This document shows positions 3,494 through 21,521 of a stretch of 32,000 nt of DNA, piece by piece. The DNA lies in contig CP064993.1 of assembly GCA_016699955.1 (NCBI GenBank), positions 30,001-62,000 on the forward strand. The letters are read 5' to 3'. The notes beneath the pieces were generated by a model. The model worked only from the letters and a program-made list of their open reading frames with translations, was not told the origin of the DNA and did no database searches. Each line of letters opens with the position of its first letter. Positions within the stretch are counted from its first letter, which is position 1. The translations under genes and the position numbers were made by a program. Origin of the DNA: Candidatus Saccharimonadota bacterium (lineage in GTDB: Bacteria > Patescibacteriota > Saccharimonadia > Saccharimonadales > UBA4665).

Positions 3494-4081
3494 ATGGAAA
3501 ATAATAATAAAACAACAGCATTGATAGCAGGAATAATTGCCGTACTAGTCATAGGTGGTGGAATATTATGGGCAATGAATAATAACAATGACAATAACGA
3601 AAATAAGGAAACGACAAGTAAGGTGGAGCAGCCTAGCCAGGCAGATCAGCAACAGCCAGGAACAATTGTTACTGTAGCGTCAGAAACACCGAGTTTGTCG
3701 ACATTAGTAACTGCAGTAAAGGCAGCAAGCTTAGTTGACACACTACAGGCTGAAGGTCCCTTCACTGTATTTGCGCCAACCAATGCAGCATTTGACGCAT
3801 TACCAGCAGGCACAGTTGATACGCTACTTATGCCTGAGAATGTAGACCAGCTTAAGTCCATCCTTACCTATCACGTAGTGTCAGGTAAAGTTATGGCATC
3901 TGATCTAAAAGATGGACAGGAAATAACCACAGTTCAAGGTGGTAAGCTAACAGTTTCAATATCTGATGGCAAAGCATATGTCATTGATGCTAAAAGCAAC
4001 AAAGTACTGGTCGAGAAAGCCGATGTAAATGCAGGCAATGGTGTTGTGCATGTCATCGGTGGAGTATTACTACCCAGTTAA
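3494..4081 (+). CDS. fasciclin (FAS1) domain protein with N-terminal membrane anchor
   Basis: A TM helix is followed by the FAS1 motifs TVFAPTNAAFDALP, LTYHVV and NGVVHVIGGVLLP. Confidence 0.85.
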   Translation: MENNNKTTALIAGIIAVLVIGGGILWAMNNNNDNNENKETTSKVEQPSQADQQQPGTIVTVASETPSLSTLVTAVKAASLVDTLQAEGPFTVFAPTNAAFDALPAGTVDTLLMPENVDQLKSILTYHVVSGKVMASDLKDGQEITTVQGGKLTVSISDGKAYVIDAKSNKVLVEKADVNAGNGVVHVIGGVLLPS

Positions 4082-4109
4082 AAATAGGTCACAAATTCCA
4101 AAAATTACA

Positions 4110-4142
4110 AATAGCCCGATCTTGCGATACGGGCTATTTTTG
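4110..4142 (+). terminator. intrinsic terminator after the fasciclin gene
   Basis: AATAGCCCG (4110-4118) pairs with CGGGCTATT (4130-4138), followed by a T-run. Confidence 0.7.
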
Positions 4143-4152
4143 TAATTATGTG

Positions 4153-4346
4153 GATGAGGACTGCCTGTAGCAGTTCGGAAACGAATCTTTTCTTACGAAC
4201 TTGTTTGTAATGATTAAATTCGGGGTGACGTCCGCCAGTCGGCAGATCGCAAGGGAGTCAACTCTTACATACTGGTTTGCAAAGACGTTGCGACGGGTTG
4301 CTGAGAGTGACCGCGCAAGCGTGACCAAGTCCCCGCTGGCCATCTA
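4153..4346 (+). repeat. tRNA-Lys-3'-end-like module, copy Y (repeat or ncRNA of unknown function)
   Basis: It starts GATGAGGACTGCCtgtaGCAGTTCGG (a hairpin) and ends GTGACCAAGTCCCCGCTGGCCATCTA. Positions 4326-4341 are identical to the T-loop/acceptor 3' strand of the tRNA-Lys at 7810-7886. Both ends are homologous to 7617-7733. Confidence 0.45.
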
Positions 4347-4393
4347 ATCAAAATAATTTTAGATTAGTGTTTATATTAATGAATAATGTAGAT

Positions 4394-4858
4394 ATGAGAA
4401 GAAACCAAAACGGCTTCGGAGCCATTGAGATTCTAATATTAATTGCTGTGATTACCGTACTCGCGGTAGCAGGATGGTTGATATACACTGCCAAATACCC
4501 AAGCCCAAGTGGAAAAACGCAAATAAGTCGTAACCCAAGCAATACAGCCACTACACAACCTGACAATTCAGCAGCTCGTACGCTTCAGGACAGTAAAGAT
4601 CAAGTGACTATTGACTTCGCAAAATGCACTGCTGACATAAATAGATTCAACGTAGCTTTTGGTTCAACCACTATTGAAATAAAAGGCAAGGACGCTGACG
4701 TCTGCCTTCTTAATTATGGTGGTGAAACAGAAAACCCAAATTGGGACGGCAAGCTTGATACCTCATGCCGCGTACCAGTTTCAGAAGGTAAAAAACAGTT
4801 TTCAAAAAACAATTACGGCGTTAGTCTTGGCTCAATAGATCAATTTTGCTCAAACTAA
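4394..4858 (+). CDS. type IV pilin-like / pseudopilin protein (prepilin-type N-terminal motif)
   Basis: MRRNQNG|FGAIEILILIAVITVLAV has Gly at -1, Glu at +5 and a following hydrophobic helix. Alternative starts are at 4367 (GTG) and 4379 (ATG). Confidence 0.6.
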   Translation: MRRNQNGFGAIEILILIAVITVLAVAGWLIYTAKYPSPSGKTQISRNPSNTATTQPDNSAARTLQDSKDQVTIDFAKCTADINRFNVAFGSTTIEIKGKDADVCLLNYGGETENPNWDGKLDTSCRVPVSEGKKQFSKNNYGVSLGSIDQFCSN

Positions 4859-14151: not shown

Positions 14152-15003
14152 ATGACTTGGCAAGTATACATTGCTGTTTCTGTCTTATTGCTTTCGGTAG
14201 CCATATTGTTGCAGAGAGTTATTTTGCGCAAACACACTGTAGATGCTGTGGCATTTGCAGGAACTTTTCAGTTGCTCGTTGCCGTCGTAATGCTTCCGTG
14301 GGCGCTCCTAAACGGACTCTCCTTTGAGGGGTACTCCTCACAATTAGTACCAATAATACTTGCGACGCTCGGCTTCGGCATAGGCTCGGTTGTTTACGCA
14401 CAGACGCTCAAACACGTTGATGCATCTGCCTTTTCGGTGCTGTTTGCGACGCAGGCAATATGGATTATGGTCGCCGGTATGTGGCTCTACCACGAGAAGC
14501 TGACTTGGCCACAGGCAGTCGGTGCCTTGTTTATTTTTGGCAGCGTTGTTTTGCTAACAGAAACGCGGAAAGGATTTCGCAGCCAGCGAGGTCTATTGCT
14601 TGGGTTACTCACCGGTTTGTTGTTTGGTATTGGCATTGCTGCTTCCGCCTACATGGTACGTGAAGTTGAACCAATTACGTGGATTTGGTTTTCGTTTATT
14701 TTGGGTGGCCTAGGCTCACTGCTGGTAAAACCAAGTAAAATTCCTCTCTGTAATAAACTCATCCGCGGTAAAATATTCCGCAGCATGCTAGTTCTTTCTG
14801 CCATATACGCACTAGGAACTGCTGCCATGAACTACGCGTATATTGAGGGTCCTTTTAGCCTTGTCGCTCCTATTCGCCAGACGGGTATCATCGTCACCGC
14901 CTTGCTCGCCTTTGCCTTTTTGCGCGATGAACGTAATAACATTGCCCGTAAGCTCGTCGCCGTCGCTATCTGCACCACCGGTGTTGTTCTTCTAGTGGTA
15001 TAA
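14152..15003 (+). CDS. EamA/DMT-family transporter
   Basis: 283 aa with about 10 hydrophobic helices in two similar halves, typical of the drug/metabolite transporter superfamily. Confidence 0.8.
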   Translation: MTWQVYIAVSVLLLSVAILLQRVILRKHTVDAVAFAGTFQLLVAVVMLPWALLNGLSFEGYSSQLVPIILATLGFGIGSVVYAQTLKHVDASAFSVLFATQAIWIMVAGMWLYHEKLTWPQAVGALFIFGSVVLLTETRKGFRSQRGLLLGLLTGLLFGIGIAASAYMVREVEPITWIWFSFILGGLGSLLVKPSKIPLCNKLIRGKIFRSMLVLSAIYALGTAAMNYAYIEGPFSLVAPIRQTGIIVTALLAFAFLRDERNNIARKLVAVAICTTGVVLLVV

Positions 15004-15033
15004 CCTCAAATCTGTTATACTGAACGGTGTTAT

Positions 15034-15110
15034 GCGCCCGTAGCTCAGTGGATTAGAGTACTTGGCTTCGAACCAAGGGGTCGTAGGTTCAAATCCTGCC
15101 GGGCGTACCA
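15034..15110 (+). tRNA. tRNA-Arg (anticodon UCG), CCA encoded
   Basis: Cloverleaf: GCGCCCG/CGGGCGT acceptor, CTTGG-CTTCGAA-CCAAG anticodon arm, GTAGG-TTCAAAT-CCTGC T-arm. Confidence 0.9.
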
Positions 15111-16288
15111 TAAGGTTTTTCTGCTTCTTTCTGTGATTTTATTTTCTAGGAAGAAGTTTTCTATATCTGTAATTGGTTCGAAAATCAGGCTAAGTTCAGT
15201 GGTTCGAAAAGTACGGTCTGAATTTACAAAGATTCCATGCTGGAAAACCATTTTTTGGAACCGCTGCCTGTCTTCCAGATGTGAGCCAGTCCAAAGCCTT
15301 TGAGTATTGGATATGAACCGCACGGCTTCATCAGCAATGCCTTCCTTGTTCTGCTCGGTAATTTTCAGCTTGCTACGCTCATCCTCAAGCTCCAAGCGTT
15401 TTAGCATTATTCGCTCTTCCTGCTGCTGGTAGATGTCTTCGGCGATTCTATCGTCCACAAACTTATCAATAAGCTTATTCTTCCTGTCCTCCAATTCCGT
15501 CAGCTCCCTATCCACCCTGCGACGCCGGTCTTGCACCTCCCTGAACTCGTGATTCCACCTGCGGAGCACAATCTCCCTAAACGCCTTAGAAATCCAGGCT
15601 GCTGGCTGCACCAAGTTCAATAACGGCTCGAACTCGACATGTGGTGCCTGCTCCTGGGATATGCGAACGGTGGCTCCAACAGTTTTCTTGGTACATTTGG
15701 AACAATGATAGGCAGGGTAGCTGCCATTCCTGCCTTTGGAAACGCTTGCAGTCAGAGGGTATTCGCACAAACCACACTTCAAGTATCGCCGTAGTGGAAA
15801 TGTAGTATTACGCCTTTTTTCTGGTGCTACATTCCGCTTTTTGCCAGCCAGCTTCCTAAACTCTTCCACACTGATAATCGTCTGCTCGTTCATGGTTGCC
15901 GCTTTAATACAGCCACAAAATCAGTCAGAAACTGCTGCGGAGTTGGCAAGGAAAAACGCACCGTTAGCTAGTCGTCTGCGGGGTTCGAAAGAGTTGATTC
16001 GTACTTGACTAAATACTTGTTGAGCTTGCGTATGAGGTGCCGACTCTGTGAGTTTTCCAGGTCATTTAGATTGCTGCGAATTATCCATATAAGCTGTTTG
16101 CGTGCCAGCTGCACAACGCTCTTGATGCCGATATGTTCTTTCTCGGAGACAATTGCGAACCTCTCTTTGATTGCACCCTTGAGAAACGACTTCGTATAAA
16201 ACTCGTGCAGCTTCGTTGTGCTGGCAGGGACAACTTTCTTTGCCTTGAGGTCATCAATTGTATGCACCATGTCAGTGTTTTGGAGCAA
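15045..16288 (-). pseudogene. large serine recombinase remnant (recombinase domain, zinc ribbon and coiled coil; catalytic N-terminal domain missing)
   Basis: ORF 15045-15893 carries a zinc ribbon (KCGLCEYPL...YHCSKC) and a long coiled coil. The upstream piece (15968-16288) is in another frame and resembles the recombinase domain. I see no resolvase-type N-terminal domain. The last about 22 codons are the antisense of the tRNA-Arg. Confidence 0.6.
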
Positions 16289-16412
16289 AAACTTGAAGAA
16301 TATGTATCTGCTACTGCCCGTTCCATCAAATCGGTACAGCAGTTCATTGCCACCGTTCCATTACTGCCACGCACGACAAGCACTGCCTGTGCAAAACTAC
16401 CTTAATTATAAT

Positions 16413-16464
16413 TAGTACTTCACAGAGTACCAATAAGGGTATATATTAGTACATTGTAGAGTAC
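16413..16464 (+). promoter_or_regulatory. duplicated 18-bp motif TAGTAC-N8-GTAC, candidate operator/promoter of the ATPase operon
   Basis: TAGTACttcacagaGTAC (16413-16430) and TAGTACattgtagaGTAC (16447-16464) lie 34 bp apart. An AT-rich TATATAT sits between them, and the SD AAGGAGG is at 16481-16487. Confidence 0.4.
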
Positions 16465-16491
16465 TAGAAATTCTTATGCTAAGGAGGTGTT

Positions 16492-17937
16492 ATGAACGAC
16501 CAGCTTACTAGATACATCCAAAGACAGTTACTGTTAGGTGAGTCAATAATGCGTTCCAAGAACAAAAATGGTCGAGGACGCACCCTGCCAACACGAACAA
16601 TGATAGTGCTCGTACAAAAGTACATCCGAGACTTTCTATCGAAAAATCCTGGCACCAAACGATGGGTTATTCTGCCTGGTCTAAGGGGCGTTGGCAAAAC
16701 CACACTACTGGCACAAAGTTACCTCTGGCTAATGAACCAAGCCGATGACAGAATCAACATCATATACGTGTCTCTTGATGAAGTTGTCGAGAAGGTTGGC
16801 TCTGACCTGTCAGCGCTGCTGGACGAGTACGAACGGTTGCTGGGTCAAAGCTTTGAGCAGCTCGATAAACCGACATTCATTTTCATCGACGAGGTACAAA
16901 CCGACCCTAAATGGGCTAGAACACTCAAGTTCTTGTATGACCGAAGCCCAAACATATTCTTGATTTGCTCAGGCTCGTCAGCCGTACACTTACAGATGGA
17001 TGCAGATATTGATGGACGAAGAGCGGTCACGGAAAAACTGTTCCCACTAAGCTTCCCTGAATACCAGGTCTTAGCCAATGATGTTCTACCAGCAAAAGGA
17101 CTCAAAAACCAACTAATCCGCAGCCTCTACTGTAATAAGGACGCTGAGTCGGTATATAAAGACCTGCAAGGTATCAAGCTTGCCGTTGACCAGCAGTGGG
17201 CAAGGTATAACCGAAACTCGGTAACAAAATACCTCCAAACTGGTACGATACCCTTTACGCTCGGCGAGACTGACGTAAGACAGGTTTACTCCGCCATTAA
17301 CGCTATGGTAGATAAAATAATCTCTGTCGACCTGCAAACGCTTAACCAATTCAAGTCTGAAACGGTTGGTGCATTGAAGCGACTGATTTTTGTACTTAGC
17401 GATTGCGATGTCATGACTTATGAAGCGATGGCAAAAGCCGTTGGCGTAAGCCGAGGGCAGATTATCAATATGCTCGATGCCCTAGTCAAGGCAGAGCTGT
17501 TAATAAAAGTTCCAGCTCACGGTAGTAACATTACCGCCACCACAAATCCATCTAAGTATCTTTTCATGAGTCCAGCTATAAGAGCAGCGTTTCATGACAT
17601 CGTAGGCTTGCCAGACACGGTTGCCGCCAGACAAGGTAAGCTGCTAGAAGATGCCGCTGGACTGCACTACTATCGGGAGTTCGTTACTAAAAAAGTTGGT
17701 AGCATTACCCATCCCTTCGATAAGGACGGTGGGCAGTGTGACTTTATCCTGAGAGTCGACAACAGCAGGCAGATTGCAATTGAGTTTGGACTCGGCACCA
17801 AAGGCTATAAGCAGCCACTCACTACGCTCAAGAAATTCGGAGGTAACTATGGGGTGGTATTTTCCGAGAGTCCTCTGGGCATGGACGAAAGCAAAAGCGT
17901 CGTAACAGTACCCCTGGATTACTTCTGGTGCATGTAA
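16492..17937 (+). CDS. AAA+ ATPase of the COG1373 type (AAA_14 plus DUF4143-like C-terminus)
   Basis: Walker A is GLRGVGKT (16678-16701) and Walker B is FIFIDE (16876-16893). The family signature DPKW...GSS...GR...LFPLSFPEY is present. The C-terminal GGQCDFILRVDNSRQIAIEFGLGTK resembles the nuclease-like tail of this family. Confidence 0.85.
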   Translation: MNDQLTRYIQRQLLLGESIMRSKNKNGRGRTLPTRTMIVLVQKYIRDFLSKNPGTKRWVILPGLRGVGKTTLLAQSYLWLMNQADDRINIIYVSLDEVVEKVGSDLSALLDEYERLLGQSFEQLDKPTFIFIDEVQTDPKWARTLKFLYDRSPNIFLICSGSSAVHLQMDADIDGRRAVTEKLFPLSFPEYQVLANDVLPAKGLKNQLIRSLYCNKDAESVYKDLQGIKLAVDQQWARYNRNSVTKYLQTGTIPFTLGETDVRQVYSAINAMVDKIISVDLQTLNQFKSETVGALKRLIFVLSDCDVMTYEAMAKAVGVSRGQIINMLDALVKAELLIKVPAHGSNITATTNPSKYLFMSPAIRAAFHDIVGLPDTVAARQGKLLEDAAGLHYYREFVTKKVGSITHPFDKDGGQCDFILRVDNSRQIAIEFGLGTKGYKQPLTTLKKFGGNYGVVFSESPLGMDESKSVVTVPLDYFWCM

Positions 17938-17965
17938 CAAACTTAGAAAGGAATATAATACAATT

Positions 17966-18847
17966 ATGGCAACAAGAAAACCACAAATACCGCAAGAAAC
18001 TCCTAAGCCTGAACTAACAATCTCTCGGAGTGAAGCTAATGATAAGCTGAGCGACAGAATTAGCCTTGGGAAGAAAATCCATGACACTGACGTGCAGTCC
18101 GAGGGCGAGCTTGATGCCTTGAAGTCAGAACGCAAGAATTGGCATGATTATAACAAGGAGCTTCTCGGCACTATTTTTAGTAATGAAAAAATTGCGAAAG
18201 AATACGAGAGCAACTCTCATGGAGTTATGTTCATGGGCGGAACAAGAAGTCTCGGACAAGAGATTGGCGACTTTCGTGAGAGTATGCAATATAAGCTCAA
18301 CTCCTTGCAATCAATAGTCGGTAGGCTTGAGCTATTTCCTGAAACAGTGCCCAGCCACACTAGCCAGTCACAGCCAACCATTACGAAGCTAGCCGAAGGG
18401 AGTGAGGCTAACATTTTTATCGTGCATGGACATGATAACGAACTAAAAGAGCAGACCGCTAGACTGGTTTCAGACTTGGGGCTCAAACCAATTATCCTGC
18501 ATGAGCAAGAGAACAAAGGTCAGACACTTATCGAAAAACTGGAATCAAACGCTAACAAATCATCGTTTGCCATCGTGCTTCTTACCCCTGATGATTATGG
18601 CTATTCCGTAGAAGATGGGCTCGAAAAAGCAAGACCAAGAGCACGGCAGAATGTAGTATTGGAGCTTGGTTATTTCATTGGTAAACTTGGTCGGTCACGA
18701 ACTTGTGCCCTGTACAAAGGTGTTGATGCTCCAACTGATTTCGATGGCGTTGTTTATACACCAGCAGACGAGGCACAAGCCTGGCGATATACCGTTGCCA
18801 AGGAGCTGAAAGCCGCTGGGTACAAGATAGACATGAATAAACTTTAA
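17966..18847 (+). CDS. protein with C-terminal TIR-like domain (COG4271 / CAP12-Pycsar TIR type) and an unassigned N-terminal helical region
   Basis: Residues about 149-293 read NIFIVHGHD...LGLKPIILHEQ...FAIVLLTPDD...ARQNVVLELGYFIGKLGR...DGVVY...KELKAAGY. This matches the TIR-like family pattern, including the conserved Glu (E233, 18662-18664). Confidence 0.8.
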   Translation: MATRKPQIPQETPKPELTISRSEANDKLSDRISLGKKIHDTDVQSEGELDALKSERKNWHDYNKELLGTIFSNEKIAKEYESNSHGVMFMGGTRSLGQEIGDFRESMQYKLNSLQSIVGRLELFPETVPSHTSQSQPTITKLAEGSEANIFIVHGHDNELKEQTARLVSDLGLKPIILHEQENKGQTLIEKLESNANKSSFAIVLLTPDDYGYSVEDGLEKARPRARQNVVLELGYFIGKLGRSRTCALYKGVDAPTDFDGVVYTPADEAQAWRYTVAKELKAAGYKIDMNKL

Positions 18848-18858
18848 CGGAGCTAAGC

Positions 18859-19206
18859 ATGGATCTCGAACAATTCGTATCAGACGTACTCAGCCAGTTG
18901 GATGCTGCGGTGGAAAAAGTCGACAAGTCCAAAACTCAGTTTGCTATCAATCCAGTAAACGGTATCGACTTCGATGTTGCAGTAACGGTTTCGTCGAAGG
19001 ATGCTGGGACGACGGATAAAGATGCTAGCCTGCGTGTTAAGGTAGTTGGTGCAGGCTTCAAGCTGTCTAACTCATCTGAGACGGCATTGGAAACAAGCTC
19101 ACGAGTAAAGTTCAATGTATCCGCCAGAAAAGTCAGTGAAAAACGGACAGGAGTGGTAAACACCAAACCGCATAAGCCATCCTTTTCTCCTGACACCAGA
19201 TACTAG
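18859..19206 (+). CDS. small trypco2-like protein
   Basis: 115 aa. LEQFVSDVLSQLDAAV...GIDFDVAVTVSS...LRVKVVGAGFKLS...SSRVKFNVS fits my recollection of the trypsin-co-occurring domain 2 pattern. It starts 11 bp after the TIR-like gene, with GGAG upstream. Confidence 0.5.
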   Translation: MDLEQFVSDVLSQLDAAVEKVDKSKTQFAINPVNGIDFDVAVTVSSKDAGTTDKDASLRVKVVGAGFKLSNSSETALETSSRVKFNVSARKVSEKRTGVVNTKPHKPSFSPDTRY

Positions 19207-19211
19207 TTGTT

Positions 19212-19236
19212 AAGGTTCTAATACCATGCGTTACTA
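19212..19236 (+). repeat. possible degenerate copy of the tRNA-Arg 3' end (candidate distal island boundary)
   Basis: AAGGTTCTAATACCATGCGTTACTA compared with the tRNA 3' end AGGTTCAAATCCTGCCGGGCGTACCA. Similarity is patchy and needs gaps. Confidence 0.25.
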
Positions 19237-19442
19237 TATTGCTGGTGCCGACAGTAGTGACTGATTCGCCAGCTCATCCCATCGCAACAGTTCGGACTTG
19301 AGCTGGTTCCAATTAGAAACCCTAAACGCGTACTATTTATAAACAAGTTATCCACATCATAAAATGCTTGTGGTTGCAAATGTTTTTGCGTAAGCATACA
19401 CTACATGTACCATCGTTGAGGTGATCGTTACCGCAAGGTAAC

Positions 19443-21521
19443 GTGTGGGGACTCAGCAATGAGAAACCACTGAAAAAGCCCGGCTTGCCCGGGCTTTTTC
19501 ATAAGTTTGTAGGGGTATTTGGCGTACTCGGCATAGTGACACTGCTCATCACAAAGGCGGCAACTCCGACGGCCGCAGTCGAAACAGAGAACGGAACAAC
19601 CAACGCCAACTGTATAGTTACTGACGCGGCAGCTTCAGGAGGCAAAGCGATTAAATTTGGCAATTCTGGCTGCGGTACGCCTGTTTCGGGTGGCACAGGT
19701 GGGGCATATGGTTCGACGATTCCGGACACCAACTATCCAGTTCCTACAGCCAACGTTATTTTTATGTCGCCGAATGGAGATGATGCAAGCGCAGGGACAT
19801 CACCCAGTGCTCCGGTTAAAACCATTGGCACCGCTGTCAACAAGGCATCATCCGGCTGGACGATTGTCATGCGCGGGGGCATTTACAGAGACAGCCACGC
19901 AAAAGTAGTCAATGGCGCCTACACGAAACTGTCAAAGAACATAACTATTCAGGCATACCCGCACGAACAAGCTTGGTTTGACGGTACAGATGTCGTTACC
20001 AGCTGGACAAGCGACGGTCAGGGACATTGGTCAACTGCGTGGGATACGCCGGATTTTTGTCATGAATGGCAACTTGCAAAATCAGGGGGCTACTATCAAC
20101 AAATCTGGCCATGGAATGGTGGCACGCCATCTGCAGCAGGTCCTTGCGTTCACAAGGACATGTTCGTAACATCCGACCCAAACGCCGACCCCGACCCACA
20201 GATGGCATTTCGTAACGGCACCGCCCTCAAGCAAGTCGGTTCTCTGGCGGCGGTCAGCGCAAATACCTTTTTCTTTGATATTCCAAACAGAAAAATGTTC
20301 ATCGGAACCGACCCCAGCGGCCAAACAATTGAACTCGCCAAGCGGCCAGTTGCGTTTGTGCTAGAAGGCGGAGCAGGCGGCAACATCATCCGCGGCATTG
20401 GTTTTCGTCGTTTTGCAACCAACGAAAAAGTTGAAGGCAGCTACACGCACGGATCGTTGTTTATTAATGTGCCAAACGTAACATTTGAAAATAACACAAT
20501 AGCCGCAAATGCAGGCGCCGGGATTGGCTACGGCACGCCAAAAGGCGCCATTTTTCGAGGAAATATTGTTGCAAACAATGGCTATGACGGCATGTCCGGC
20601 AATGGTTCTGTCATGACGGCAGGTTCAATAGACAATTTACAAATTCTGAACAACGTCTTCTACGGCAACAACGCTGCACTTTTTGGGCTCAACTGCAACA
20701 TATCGTGTGGTCAAGCCGGCATAAAGCTCGCTCACATCGCTGGGTATACTCTGAAGAATAACTTATTTGAAAACCAGATGGGCAGTGCCCACGGCTTTTG
20801 GTGCGATATGGCATGCGTCGATGGTGTCCATGTCAACAACGTTCTGAAAAACAACGGCGGCGCCGGCATCTACTACGAGATATCCGACCGAGGTATAATT
20901 GCCTCTAACCTGGCTATTGGCAATAAGGCATACGGCATAAAAAGCGGCAGTGCAAACACAAAAGTGTACAACAATACATTGGTCAACAACCGAGTCGGTA
21001 TGCTTATCTACGACGACAATCGTTACCCGGGCATGTACACGGCCGCCGATAACCACACCTGGAACGACGCCGGTCCAAGTACCGTCAACATGGAGGTCGC
21101 CAATAACGTCATGTACACAAATGCAACGACAGCGTCCGGCCATATGATTCAGTCGTGGCGTACAAGTAGCGATACGACGAACAATACCGGGCCAAACACG
21201 TTCTACAGCATTTACGATGCAAACTCTTACTACCGGCCAAACGGCGCGTACTACATCGCTGAGTGGCGGGACGGTACTTCTCCTTCATTTACTTCAGTTT
21301 TGGCACTACGAGGAGCTCATCCTTTTGTTGAAACAACAAACGCACAAGACATAAGCGACGGATCAAACCCATTTGCCAACCTGGCAGCGGGTGACTACAA
21401 TATCCGCCCAGGAGCCACCACGGGAGGACGTGCTCTCCCGAGCGACGTTGCAGCCAAAATTGGCGTCAGTGCCGGGGGCACTACCCGCGGCGCCTACAGA
21501 TACTGGCCGAATGGAAACTAA
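19443..21521 (+). CDS. secreted/anchored right-handed parallel beta-helix repeat protein (pectate-lyase-fold)
   Basis: An N-terminal hydrophobic anchor is followed by repeated NN-x-I/V-x-x-N-x-G turns (NNTIAANAGAGIGY, GNIVANNGYDGMSG, NNVFYGNNAALFG, NNTLVNNRVGM). The start is uncertain, either GTG 19443 or TTG 19485. Confidence 0.75.
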   Translation: MWGLSNEKPLKKPGLPGLFHKFVGVFGVLGIVTLLITKAATPTAAVETENGTTNANCIVTDAAASGGKAIKFGNSGCGTPVSGGTGGAYGSTIPDTNYPVPTANVIFMSPNGDDASAGTSPSAPVKTIGTAVNKASSGWTIVMRGGIYRDSHAKVVNGAYTKLSKNITIQAYPHEQAWFDGTDVVTSWTSDGQGHWSTAWDTPDFCHEWQLAKSGGYYQQIWPWNGGTPSAAGPCVHKDMFVTSDPNADPDPQMAFRNGTALKQVGSLAAVSANTFFFDIPNRKMFIGTDPSGQTIELAKRPVAFVLEGGAGGNIIRGIGFRRFATNEKVEGSYTHGSLFINVPNVTFENNTIAANAGAGIGYGTPKGAIFRGNIVANNGYDGMSGNGSVMTAGSIDNLQILNNVFYGNNAALFGLNCNISCGQAGIKLAHIAGYTLKNNLFENQMGSAHGFWCDMACVDGVHVNNVLKNNGGAGIYYEISDRGIIASNLAIGNKAYGIKSGSANTKVYNNTLVNNRVGMLIYDDNRYPGMYTAADNHTWNDAGPSTVNMEVANNVMYTNATTASGHMIQSWRTSSDTTNNTGPNTFYSIYDANSYYRPNGAYYIAEWRDGTSPSFTSVLALRGAHPFVETTNAQDISDGSNPFANLAAGDYNIRPGATTGGRALPSDVAAKIGVSAGGTTRGAYRYWPNGN
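19473..19499. terminator. bidirectional terminator-like hairpin
   Basis: An 11-bp stem pairs AAAAAGCCCGG (19473-19483) with CCGGGCTTTTT (19489-19499) around a 5-nt loop. It lies inside the first 20 codons of ORF 19443. Confidence 0.55.

Follow-up and report, generated by a model that had tools for sequence, protein, structure and literature searches.

Three closely spaced genes in a Candidatus Saccharimonadota bacterium genome raise the question of whether they form one multi-gene immune system or are separate modules that came to lie side by side. The genes are found in a 32,000-nucleotide stretch of contig CP064993.1 (GenBank assembly GCA_016699955.1, positions 30,001 to 62,000 of the forward strand), which is called the window here and is numbered from its first letter. 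They encode a COG1373-type AAA+ ATPase (gene 1), a TIR-like protein (gene 2), and a small Trypco2/Pepco-like protein (gene 3). A preliminary description, made from the sequence alone, proposed an undescribed three-gene system in which an ATPase sensor or switch controls a TIR-like effector through a trypco2 adaptor. We consider it probable instead that the locus is a composite mini defense islet of three candidate immune or conflict genes, each independently mobile and functional on its own, lying head to tail as the cargo of an immobilized tRNA-Arg element. The observed basis of this reading is the integrity of the genes, their domain membership, the separability of the modules, a conserved operator-like element, and a truncated recombinase.

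Separability of the three genes

Genes 1, 2, and 3 are intact same-strand open reading frames (ORFs) with the close spacing first described: 28 bp separate gene 1 from gene 2, and 11 bp separate gene 2 from gene 3. Each gene was said to have its own Shine-Dalgarno sequence, and a Shine-Dalgarno-like sequence does precede all three. Those of gene 1 (AAGGAGGTG, 5 nt upstream of the ATG) and gene 3 (CGGAG, 6 nt upstream of the start) are strong, and that of gene 2 (AAAGGA) lies 13 nt upstream of the start, which is a long spacing. Strong purifying selection acts on the three genes alike, with ratios of nonsynonymous to synonymous substitution rates (dN/dS) of 0.036 for gene 1, 0.09-0.13 for gene 2, and the value listed in Table 1 for gene 3.

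Adjacency was surveyed in about 130 loci (numbered with an L), for relatives detectable with family hidden Markov models (HMMs). Apart from the window, only L082 was found to have the trio; this sequence is of the same lineage and has 91% nucleotide identity over 16363-19333 (blastn). Synteny of homologs in other genomes had been expected of a true system; no trio was found beyond L082, and close relatives have each gene without the others. In these comparisons, the three-gene arrangement is lineage-specific. The proposed sensor, effector, and adaptor logic is left without comparative support because synteny is not conserved and the genes are separable.

A second close relative, L086, encodes homologs of gene 2 (87% amino acid identity) and gene 3 (96%) with the same 11-bp gap and no gene 1. 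Upstream of its gene 2 are a restriction-modification (R-M) pair (N6_N4_Mtase, RE_BsaWI), a tyrosine integrase, and an intact serine recombinase. Beyond the tRNA and the recombinase end, nucleotide homology between the window and L086 is limited to one block, which extends from 19 bp before gene 2 to 2 bp past gene 3 (Table 1) and begins 10 bp past the gene 1 stop codon. Because homology is limited in this way, the block appears to have been placed directly behind gene 1. When the window is compared with L082, synonymous divergence (dS) reaches 0.50 in gene 1, about twice the values of genes 2 and 3 (0.23 and 0.30), which hints that gene 1 and genes 2 and 3 have different recent histories.

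More distant relatives of gene 2 are found apart from both of its neighbors. No gene 1 or gene 3 relative was detected by stop-to-stop six-frame HMM searches at the loci of homologs with 62-73% identity (L001, L087, L088, L134-L136). None was detected in the 6-kb flanks of gene 2 relatives in 80 species genomes, using single-sequence searches and the gene 1 and gene 3 family HMMs. Neighbor clustering across the same 80 genomes gave no recurrent partner of the full-length gene 2 form. In Escherichia coli, a full-length homolog (WP_000235578.1) occurs in 37 of 5426 complete genomes, and its locus (L133:5500-8627, NZ_AP022222.1) has neither a gene 1 nor a gene 3 partner. There it is the lone cargo gene of a capsid-encoding phage satellite and lies between the integrase/HTH genes and icd. 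Gene 2 also matches phrog_16442 over its full length, and TIR-like relatives are found on 1137 plasmid records.

Genes 1 and 3 are likewise found in other company. Gene 1 homologs with 83-85% identity stand by themselves among housekeeping genes, in three contexts unrelated to one another. Across 32 metagenome loci, neighbors of gene 3 relatives include GmrSD_N+HNH, PDDEXK_1, PIN_12, Mrr_cat, DUF2726, DUF4145, RelA_SpoT, AAA_15/AAA_21, and SLFN/AlbA_2 proteins, as well as methylases, integrases, a transposase, a Sel1-trypsin protein, a subtilase, and two TIR_2 proteins. Opposite-strand genes often flank these relatives, which suggests that they are monocistronic in many loci.

Gene 1 is preceded by a control region of its own. 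The duplicated 18-bp motif reported upstream of it is real and is better described as part of two 24-bp palindromes with the consensus ATTAGTAnnCTGTAGnnTACTAAT. The repeat itself spans 16411-16430 and 16445-16464, its copies are 80% identical and 34 bp apart, and each copy continues into a palindrome (Table 1). Every close gene 1 homolog is preceded by the palindrome pair, spaced by the same 34 bp and placed about -81/-47 of the start codon, in four unrelated contexts (L121-L124, L125-L129, L130-L131, and L082; for example L121:4924-4981, L125:4920-4977, and L130:3891-3948). A perfect single copy precedes the gene 1 homolog in L090 (L090:4765-4788). Unrelated loci totaling 1.1 Mb contain just 9 loose matches, so these occurrences are far above chance. 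Since gene 1 is the sole gene common to all palindrome contexts, we infer that the palindromes are its own operator-like element. Because they accompany gene 1 in every context, gene 1 and its promoter can be treated as an autonomous module. For gene 2, a candidate -10 hexamer shared with L086 (TATAAT, 17954-17959) is present 6 nt upstream of the ATG; a convincing -35 hexamer was not found, and the promoter scan of the locus gave no independent gene 2 promoter.

Families of the encoded proteins

All three proteins were compared with Pfam and PADLOC models. The preliminary description knew of no named system that combines the three families, which was wrong in detail: the PADLOC search places gene 1 with PDC-S01 and gene 2 with PDC-S35, both catalogued single-gene candidates.

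Gene 1 had been described as an AAA_14/DUF4143 ATPase. The AAA_14 part holds, at 83.6 bits against a cutoff of 27 bits; the DUF4143 part scores 23.9 bits, under the Pfam cutoff of 28.1, and PF13635 is present in many close homologs. Winged helix-turn-helix (wHTH)-type Pfam matches are weak and lie at about residues 296-340. Conservation was assessed in 27 homologs with 43-89% identity. The Walker A (GLRGVGK69T) and Walker B (FIFID133E134) motifs and the GSS, GRR, and PLSFPEY motifs are present as reported and are invariant or nearly so. Fully invariant are G63...K69-T-T, D133-E134, the GSS motif, R177, and D417...E431-x-G-x-G-x-K437.

Seven PDC-S01 HMMs match gene 1. DUF4143/COG1373 has been placed in the PD-(D/E)xK superfamily, with unknown function (PMC3424549). 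PDC-S01 denotes an ATPase fused to a PD-(D/E)xK domain and is among the commonest defense candidates, as yet unvalidated (PMC12988326). Gene 1 resembles this very abundant single-gene candidate (COG1373: AAA_14 plus DUF4143) in its HMM match, its C-terminal D...ExGxGxK residues, and its solitary homologs. It differs in that its DUF4143 match is under the Pfam cutoff, its acidic/lysine motif is ExGxGxK and not the canonical ExK, and its subfamily has the conserved dual palindrome upstream. By profile and motif, gene 1 is a new member of the catalogued, unvalidated candidate family PDC-S01.

Gene 2 was reported to end in a TIR-like domain with a conserved glutamate, E233, and both points are borne out. 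Residues 149-268 match PF10137 (CAP12-PCTIR_TIR, E=1.1e-37), and E233 is invariant in 30 homologs and aligns with the glutamate of the NVVFEFG motif in Cap12 structures 9lmq and 7un8. By analogy with TIR NADases, we take E233 to be the catalytic glutamate. Other invariant residues are FxVHG (151-155), T207/D209/D210, and RARQNV (225-230), with W59, N63, and L67 in the N-terminal part. The AlphaFold2 (AF2) model has a predicted local distance difference test (pLDDT) score of 79 and comprises a four-helix domain at about residues 17-123 (pLDDT about 90), a disordered linker (129-145), and the TIR-like domain. Foldseek ranks TIR-STING (Cap12) 9lmq and 7un8 first and further bacterial and eukaryotic TIR domains after them, and the matches span just the 135-150 or so TIR columns. 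A PDB sequence search adds PycTIR 8jsj.

The full-length form of gene 2 is widespread. At E<=1e-5, 7995 clusters were recovered among 8000 candidates scored, with a length that is uniformly about 290 aa across phyla. More than 100 full-length homologs of the same two-domain architecture and length were listed. The public NCBI annotation of gene 2 (P0008; 100% identical) is only 187 aa long and is truncated at the N-terminus. The start of P0008 appears to have been called too late, and the 293-aa form with the N-terminal helical domain is supported by the full-length homologs and a dN/dS of about 0.1.

Five PDC-S35 HMMs match gene 2. The best is PDLC05005 (2.8e-73), which covers residues 36-293 of 293 and profile positions 12-262 of 264, and the other four give 1e-69 to 2.7e-47. 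Gene 2 resembles this single-gene candidate, a PF10137 protein of about 290 aa, in profile, length, architecture, and solitary relatives. It differs in its surroundings, as in this lineage it is flanked by an upstream COG1373 ATPase and by a Trypco2-like gene 11 bp downstream. A literature search for PDC-S35 found no paper mentioning it and no experimental validation. On these profile matches, gene 2 is a new member of the catalogued, unvalidated candidate family PDC-S35.

Gene 2 was also compared with described TIR-like systems. It belongs to the same PF10137 family as CBASS Cap12 (TIR-STING) and Pycsar PycTIR, has its closest solved structures there (9lmq, 7un8, 8jsj), and keeps the NVVxExG glutamate. 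By analogy, it may work like these effectors. Unlike them, its N-terminus (1-145) is helical and has no STING, SAVED, or cyclic-nucleotide-binding match in Pfam, AF2, or Foldseek analyses, and no CD-NTase or pyrimidine cyclase is found in the island or its flanks. Gene 2 reaches 30 bits with the NCBIfam Cap12 equivalogs, whose cutoff is 450 bits. By domain content and context, gene 2 is not a CBASS or Pycsar member. The TIR-like protein of PsyrTA is of the same broad COG4271/PF10137 type. PsyrTA pairs it with a RecQ-like helicase; no helicase partner is present at the locus, and no PsyrA or PsyrT model is among the PADLOC matches of the locus at E<=1.

Several gene 2 relatives have unusual surroundings. 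A 62%-identical full-length homolog (L088:3017-3889) lies on the same strand within the spc operon, between rpsH (2500-2901) and rplF (4062-4595). This position is surprising for a putative NAD+-degrading effector and implies tight auto-inhibition. The E. coli satellite that carries WP_000235578.1 interrupts a prophage major capsid gene. At 7 of the 80 loci (L049:5468-5755, L074:5369-5683, L057:5147-5533, and four others), a conserved small gene of about 95-130 aa precedes the TIR gene. The TIR proteins of these loci are distant PF10137 proteins with different N-termini, and the small gene overlaps or abuts the TIR start, which makes this a separate candidate two-gene arrangement.

Gene 3 was said to fit the trypco2 pattern, and it is Trypco2-like with a borderline Pfam match. 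Of 31 family members, 16 match Trypco2 at E<0.01 (best 3.9e-7), and gene 3 itself scores slightly less against PF19631 (E=1.6e-4) than the cutoff of 24.2 bits. When 1.84 billion representative proteins were searched exhaustively, no more than 33 matches to gene 3 came back. Three of them, to the giant proteins P0123, P0135, and P0137 (5-10 stretches each), fall in YDG, Y_Y_Y, and PKD Ig-like repeats and were rejected as compositional β-strand similarity. The family has an amphipathic N-terminal helix (MDxExFVxxxLxQI), a strand GI(D/E)FD(L/V)AVT, a Gly-rich middle, and a strand SR(I/V)KF. C-terminal tails are 0-27 aa long, and no conserved Ile cleavage site is evident in them. The AF2 model is of low confidence (pLDDT 62) and has a helix at 3-20 and strands at 36-46 and 77-87. 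In the tail of gene 3 (89-115), read from the sequence, 10 of 27 residues are charged or His and 3 are Pro. Foldseek with the monomer model gave nothing in the PDB at E<2, and a profile search of PDB sequences gave nothing. No match to gene 3 came from the plasmid collection, and PHROGs and PADLOC have no family for it.

Pepco/Trypco2 is reported to be a protease-activated β-barrel pore effector (Kaur et al. 2020; Evans et al., 2025 preprint). Trypco1/2 proteins have recently been renamed Pepco and shown to assemble into SDS-resistant 9-10-mer β-barrels that become toxic once a protease removes a charged, Pro-rich C-terminal tail (10.1101/2025.11.14.688446). Gene 3 is like Pepco in size (115 versus 117 aa), N-terminal amphipathic helix, β-strands, and a charged, Pro-containing, unstructured C-terminal tail, and one member of its family adjoins a Sel1-trypsin protein. 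Unlike Pepco, gene 3 has no peptidase in its island or flanks. Most of its relatives are not protease-linked, with one Trypsin_2 and one Peptidase_S8 neighbor among about 26 independent family loci. Judged by its homologs and their neighbors, gene 3 is part of a Trypco2-like branch in which most members have no protease link.

Element remnant and flanking sequence

Features of the locus are listed in Table 1. The locus has a G+C content of 45-46%, compared with 49-51% in its surroundings, and lies between ordinary chromosomal genes. To the left are a two-component system, an EamA transporter, and the tRNA-Arg(TCG) gene. To the right are β-helix and Ig/fn3 surface proteins, a cupredoxin, HSP20, and a Mur ligase.

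Table 1. Coordinates of the three genes and associated features in the window
Feature	Coordinates	Strand	Basis or remarks
tRNA-Arg (TCG), left anchor of the element	15034-15110	+	ARAGORN; Rfam tRNA, 68.6 bits
Truncated large serine recombinase, C-terminal zinc-ribbon and coiled-coil half	15045-15893	-	tblastn; weak Zn_ribbon_recom, XisF, and CcrA matches
Spacer from remnant to gene 1 promoter, about 520 bp	15894-16410		Holds a 106-aa minus-strand ORF
Operator-like palindrome, copy 1, ATTAGTACTTCACAGAGTACCAAT	16411-16434		Overlaps -35 hexamer; about -81 of start codon in L121, L125, L130, and L082
Sigma-70-like promoter, TTCACA-17-TATATT	16419-16447	+	Consensus scan, 10/12 matches; within block conserved with L082
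Operator-like palindrome, copy 2, ATTAGTACATTGTAGAGTACTAGA	16445-16468		Overlaps end of -10 hexamer and likely transcription start
Gene 1 (481 aa), COG1373-type AAA+ ATPase with weak wHTH region and DUF4143 (PD-(D/E)xK-like) C-terminus	16492-17937	+	AAA_14, 1.6e-23 (Pfam); PDC-S01, best 6.7e-27 (PADLOC)
Gene 2 and gene 3 block, moving as a unit	17947-19208	+	blastn versus L086, 85% identity over 1262 bp
Gene 2 (293 aa), N-terminal four-helix domain, disordered linker, and CAP12/PycTIR-type TIR-like domain (149-293)	17966-18847	+	PF10137; PDC-S35; AF2; Foldseek
Gene 3 (115 aa), small Trypco2/Pepco-like protein	18859-19206	+	Trypco2, 22.3 bits; AF2; dN/dS 0.035-0.05
3' flank conserved with L082	19207-19333		blastn range 16363-19333; nothing above threshold in Rfam; no gene recognized
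GC-rich hairpin, GAAAAAGCCCGG-CTTGC-CCGGGCTTTTTC	19471-19501		Inverted-repeat and terminator scan, scored on minus strand

The trio had been placed in a decayed tRNA-linked integrative element, and the sequence at the tRNA agrees with this. The tRNA-Arg and the 3' end of the recombinase gene align with both L086 and L082. By tblastn, the remnant aligns at 48% identity with residues 252-523 of the L086 serine recombinase, which is intact (523 aa) and occupies the same tRNA position. Residues 1-251, the catalytic N-terminal half, have no tblastn match in the window. A decayed element is supported because the recombinase remnant at the tRNA is without this half. As called mechanically, the recombinase ORF extends into the tRNA.

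The spacer between the remnant and the gene 1 promoter does not encode the missing half. The spacer and its 106-aa ORF have no Pfam or NCBIfam match and no tblastn or tblastx similarity in any fetched locus, and the region is absent from L082. For attR, a direct repeat of the tRNA-Arg 3' end was sought downstream of gene 3. The best local alignment scored 15, against a shuffled median of 16 and 95th percentile of 20. The right boundary of the element is undefined because this repeat was not found.

In a Rfam scan of 14800-19800, the tRNA was the sole RNA found, and sub-threshold leader-like matches reflect the terminator hairpin. The GC-rich hairpin downstream of the conserved 3' flank is likely the terminator that bounds the locus, including, we presume, for the plus-strand genes. 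It falls within a mechanically called 692-aa ORF that begins at GTG 19443 (19443-19520 of the window). The true start of this β-helix surface protein is probably near 19510 or further downstream.

Competing readings and significance

For the composite islet, we infer the following activities, autoregulation, co-transcription, and defense role. Gene 1 would work by itself from its own regulated promoter, as a PDC-S01-type protein that binds DNA, is driven by ATP, and has a PD-(D/E)xK-like site. A dimeric HTH protein would bind the palindromes; most economically, this is gene 1's own winged-helix region, and the result would be autorepression. In gene 2, the N-terminal helical domain would sense the trigger or drive oligomerization. 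Oligomerization would assemble the TIR-like active site around E233, and this site would hydrolyze NAD+ or a related nucleotide, so that the infected cell is arrested, as with Cap12 and PycTIR effectors. Gene 3 may be an oligomeric β-barrel with a membrane-active amphipathic helix restrained by the C-terminal tail, which we propose with low confidence. Genes 2 and 3 are probably read through from the gene 1 promoter, because their block came to lie 10 bp past the stop codon of gene 1. The operon would then be one of juxtaposition and not of design.

Several points weigh against the composite islet. Tight spacing and retention of the trio in two sequences are also expected of a real operon, as is the absence of any plus-strand terminator predicted between genes 1, 2, and 3 by the terminator scan. 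Genes 2 and 3 move together between L086 and the window, with gene 3 better conserved than gene 2, and their pairing may be functional. In L090 (3281-5309), a 68%-identical gene 1 homolog divergently adjoins a 33%-identical gene 3 relative across a 269-bp gap, beside a PIN_12 protein; this is a second, independent adjacency of genes 1 and 3, which the composite islet does not explain. The reach of the adjacency surveys, in loci covered and in relatives detectable, counts in the same direction. So does the only anti-phage test of PDC-S01 found in the literature, in which one representative did not protect E. coli from T4, T5, or T7 (PMC12881386).

The integrated system of the preliminary description draws on some of these points, since the genes are contiguous behind a single recognizable promoter with no internal terminator, purifying selection acts on all of them where the trio is kept, and relatives of genes 1 and 3 adjoin in L090. 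Its ATPase sensor or switch, TIR-like effector, and trypco2-like adaptor are nevertheless not kept together outside one lineage, and close relatives have each gene without the others. In every context, whether or not genes 2 and 3 are present, gene 1 comes with an operator and promoter of its own, and the onset of L086 homology 19 bp before gene 2 implies that a block was inserted behind gene 1. We regard an integrated three-gene system as highly improbable. A narrower proposal is that genes 2 and 3 are a genuine two-gene system beside an unrelated gene 1. The TIR-like protein would sense infection and deplete NAD+ or make a nucleotide signal, and the Pepco-like protein would be a second, membrane-permeabilizing effector or a modulator that needs no protease. 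We know of no mechanism that activates a Pepco-like protein without a protease, and this counts against the proposal. In its favor, the 1.26-kb block is the one unit that the window and L086 share, conservation extends to the 11-bp gap and the Shine-Dalgarno sequence, the dN/dS of gene 3 is as low as 0.035, TIR_2-domain proteins lie no more than three genes away at two other gene 3-family loci, and Pepco has been described as a modular effector (10.1101/2025.11.14.688446). The pairing is nevertheless confined to one narrow lineage with gene 2 identity of at least 87%. The other gene 2 homologs examined (the loci of 62-73% identity, the 80 species genomes, and E. coli) are without gene 3, and gene 3 relatives have many different neighbors and are often monocistronic. 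We judge a two-gene system unlikely. Gene 3 was also considered as the antitoxin of gene 2 and was rejected, as nearly all gene 2 homologs are without it.

The genes could also serve the mobile element itself, by addiction, stabilization, or exclusion of competitors, or be regulators. The COG1373 protein would then be a DNA-binding regulator or a partition-like ATPase, and the TIR-like and Trypco2-like proteins toxin-like stabilizers. The location in an integrative-element remnant, the conserved operator of the gene 1 subfamily among housekeeping genes in candidate phyla radiation (CPR) genomes, the failure of the PDC-S01 representative to protect E. coli, and the lack of validated defense among the three families all fit such a role. 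We find a non-immune role very unlikely, given that gene 2 relatives occupy classic defense-cargo positions (a satellite hotspot, beside R-M systems), that R-M, Abi-like, and nuclease genes surround gene 3 relatives, and that the TIR-like domain has its closest similarity to known effectors of abortive infection. Gene 2 is found with no antitoxin-like partner and even within a ribosomal-protein operon, which argues against a constitutive toxin. A further proposal is a nascent three-gene system in this lineage, in which the PDC-S35-type TIR-like protein and a protease-independent Pepco/Trypco2-like pore former are a two-effector module captured under the autoregulated promoter of the COG1373 ATPase. 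The module would combine NAD+ or nucleotide depletion with membrane permeabilization. We consider this distinctly unlikely. If true, it would mean that a whole branch of Trypco2-like proteins needs no protease and functions next to a variety of nuclease and NADase effectors.

As a system, the composite islet matters little, being one more defense islet built from already catalogued candidate families (PDC-S01, PDC-S35, and Trypco2-like). It is a clean worked example of operon-like tight spacing that arises from juxtaposed autonomous modules, and of why synteny should be checked before multi-gene systems are named. For the PDC-S35 family, TIR-like proteins of this type are tolerated as solitary genes, in a ribosomal-protein operon and as phage-satellite cargo, which argues for tightly auto-inhibited single-protein sensor-effectors. 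The Trypco2/Pepco-like branch represented by gene 3 lies in defense islands mostly without proteases, which questions the universality of proteolytic licensing for that fold. The palindrome pair upstream of gene 1 offers a testable handle, through DNA binding and autoregulation, on a very abundant uncharacterized ATPase family of archaea and CPR bacteria.

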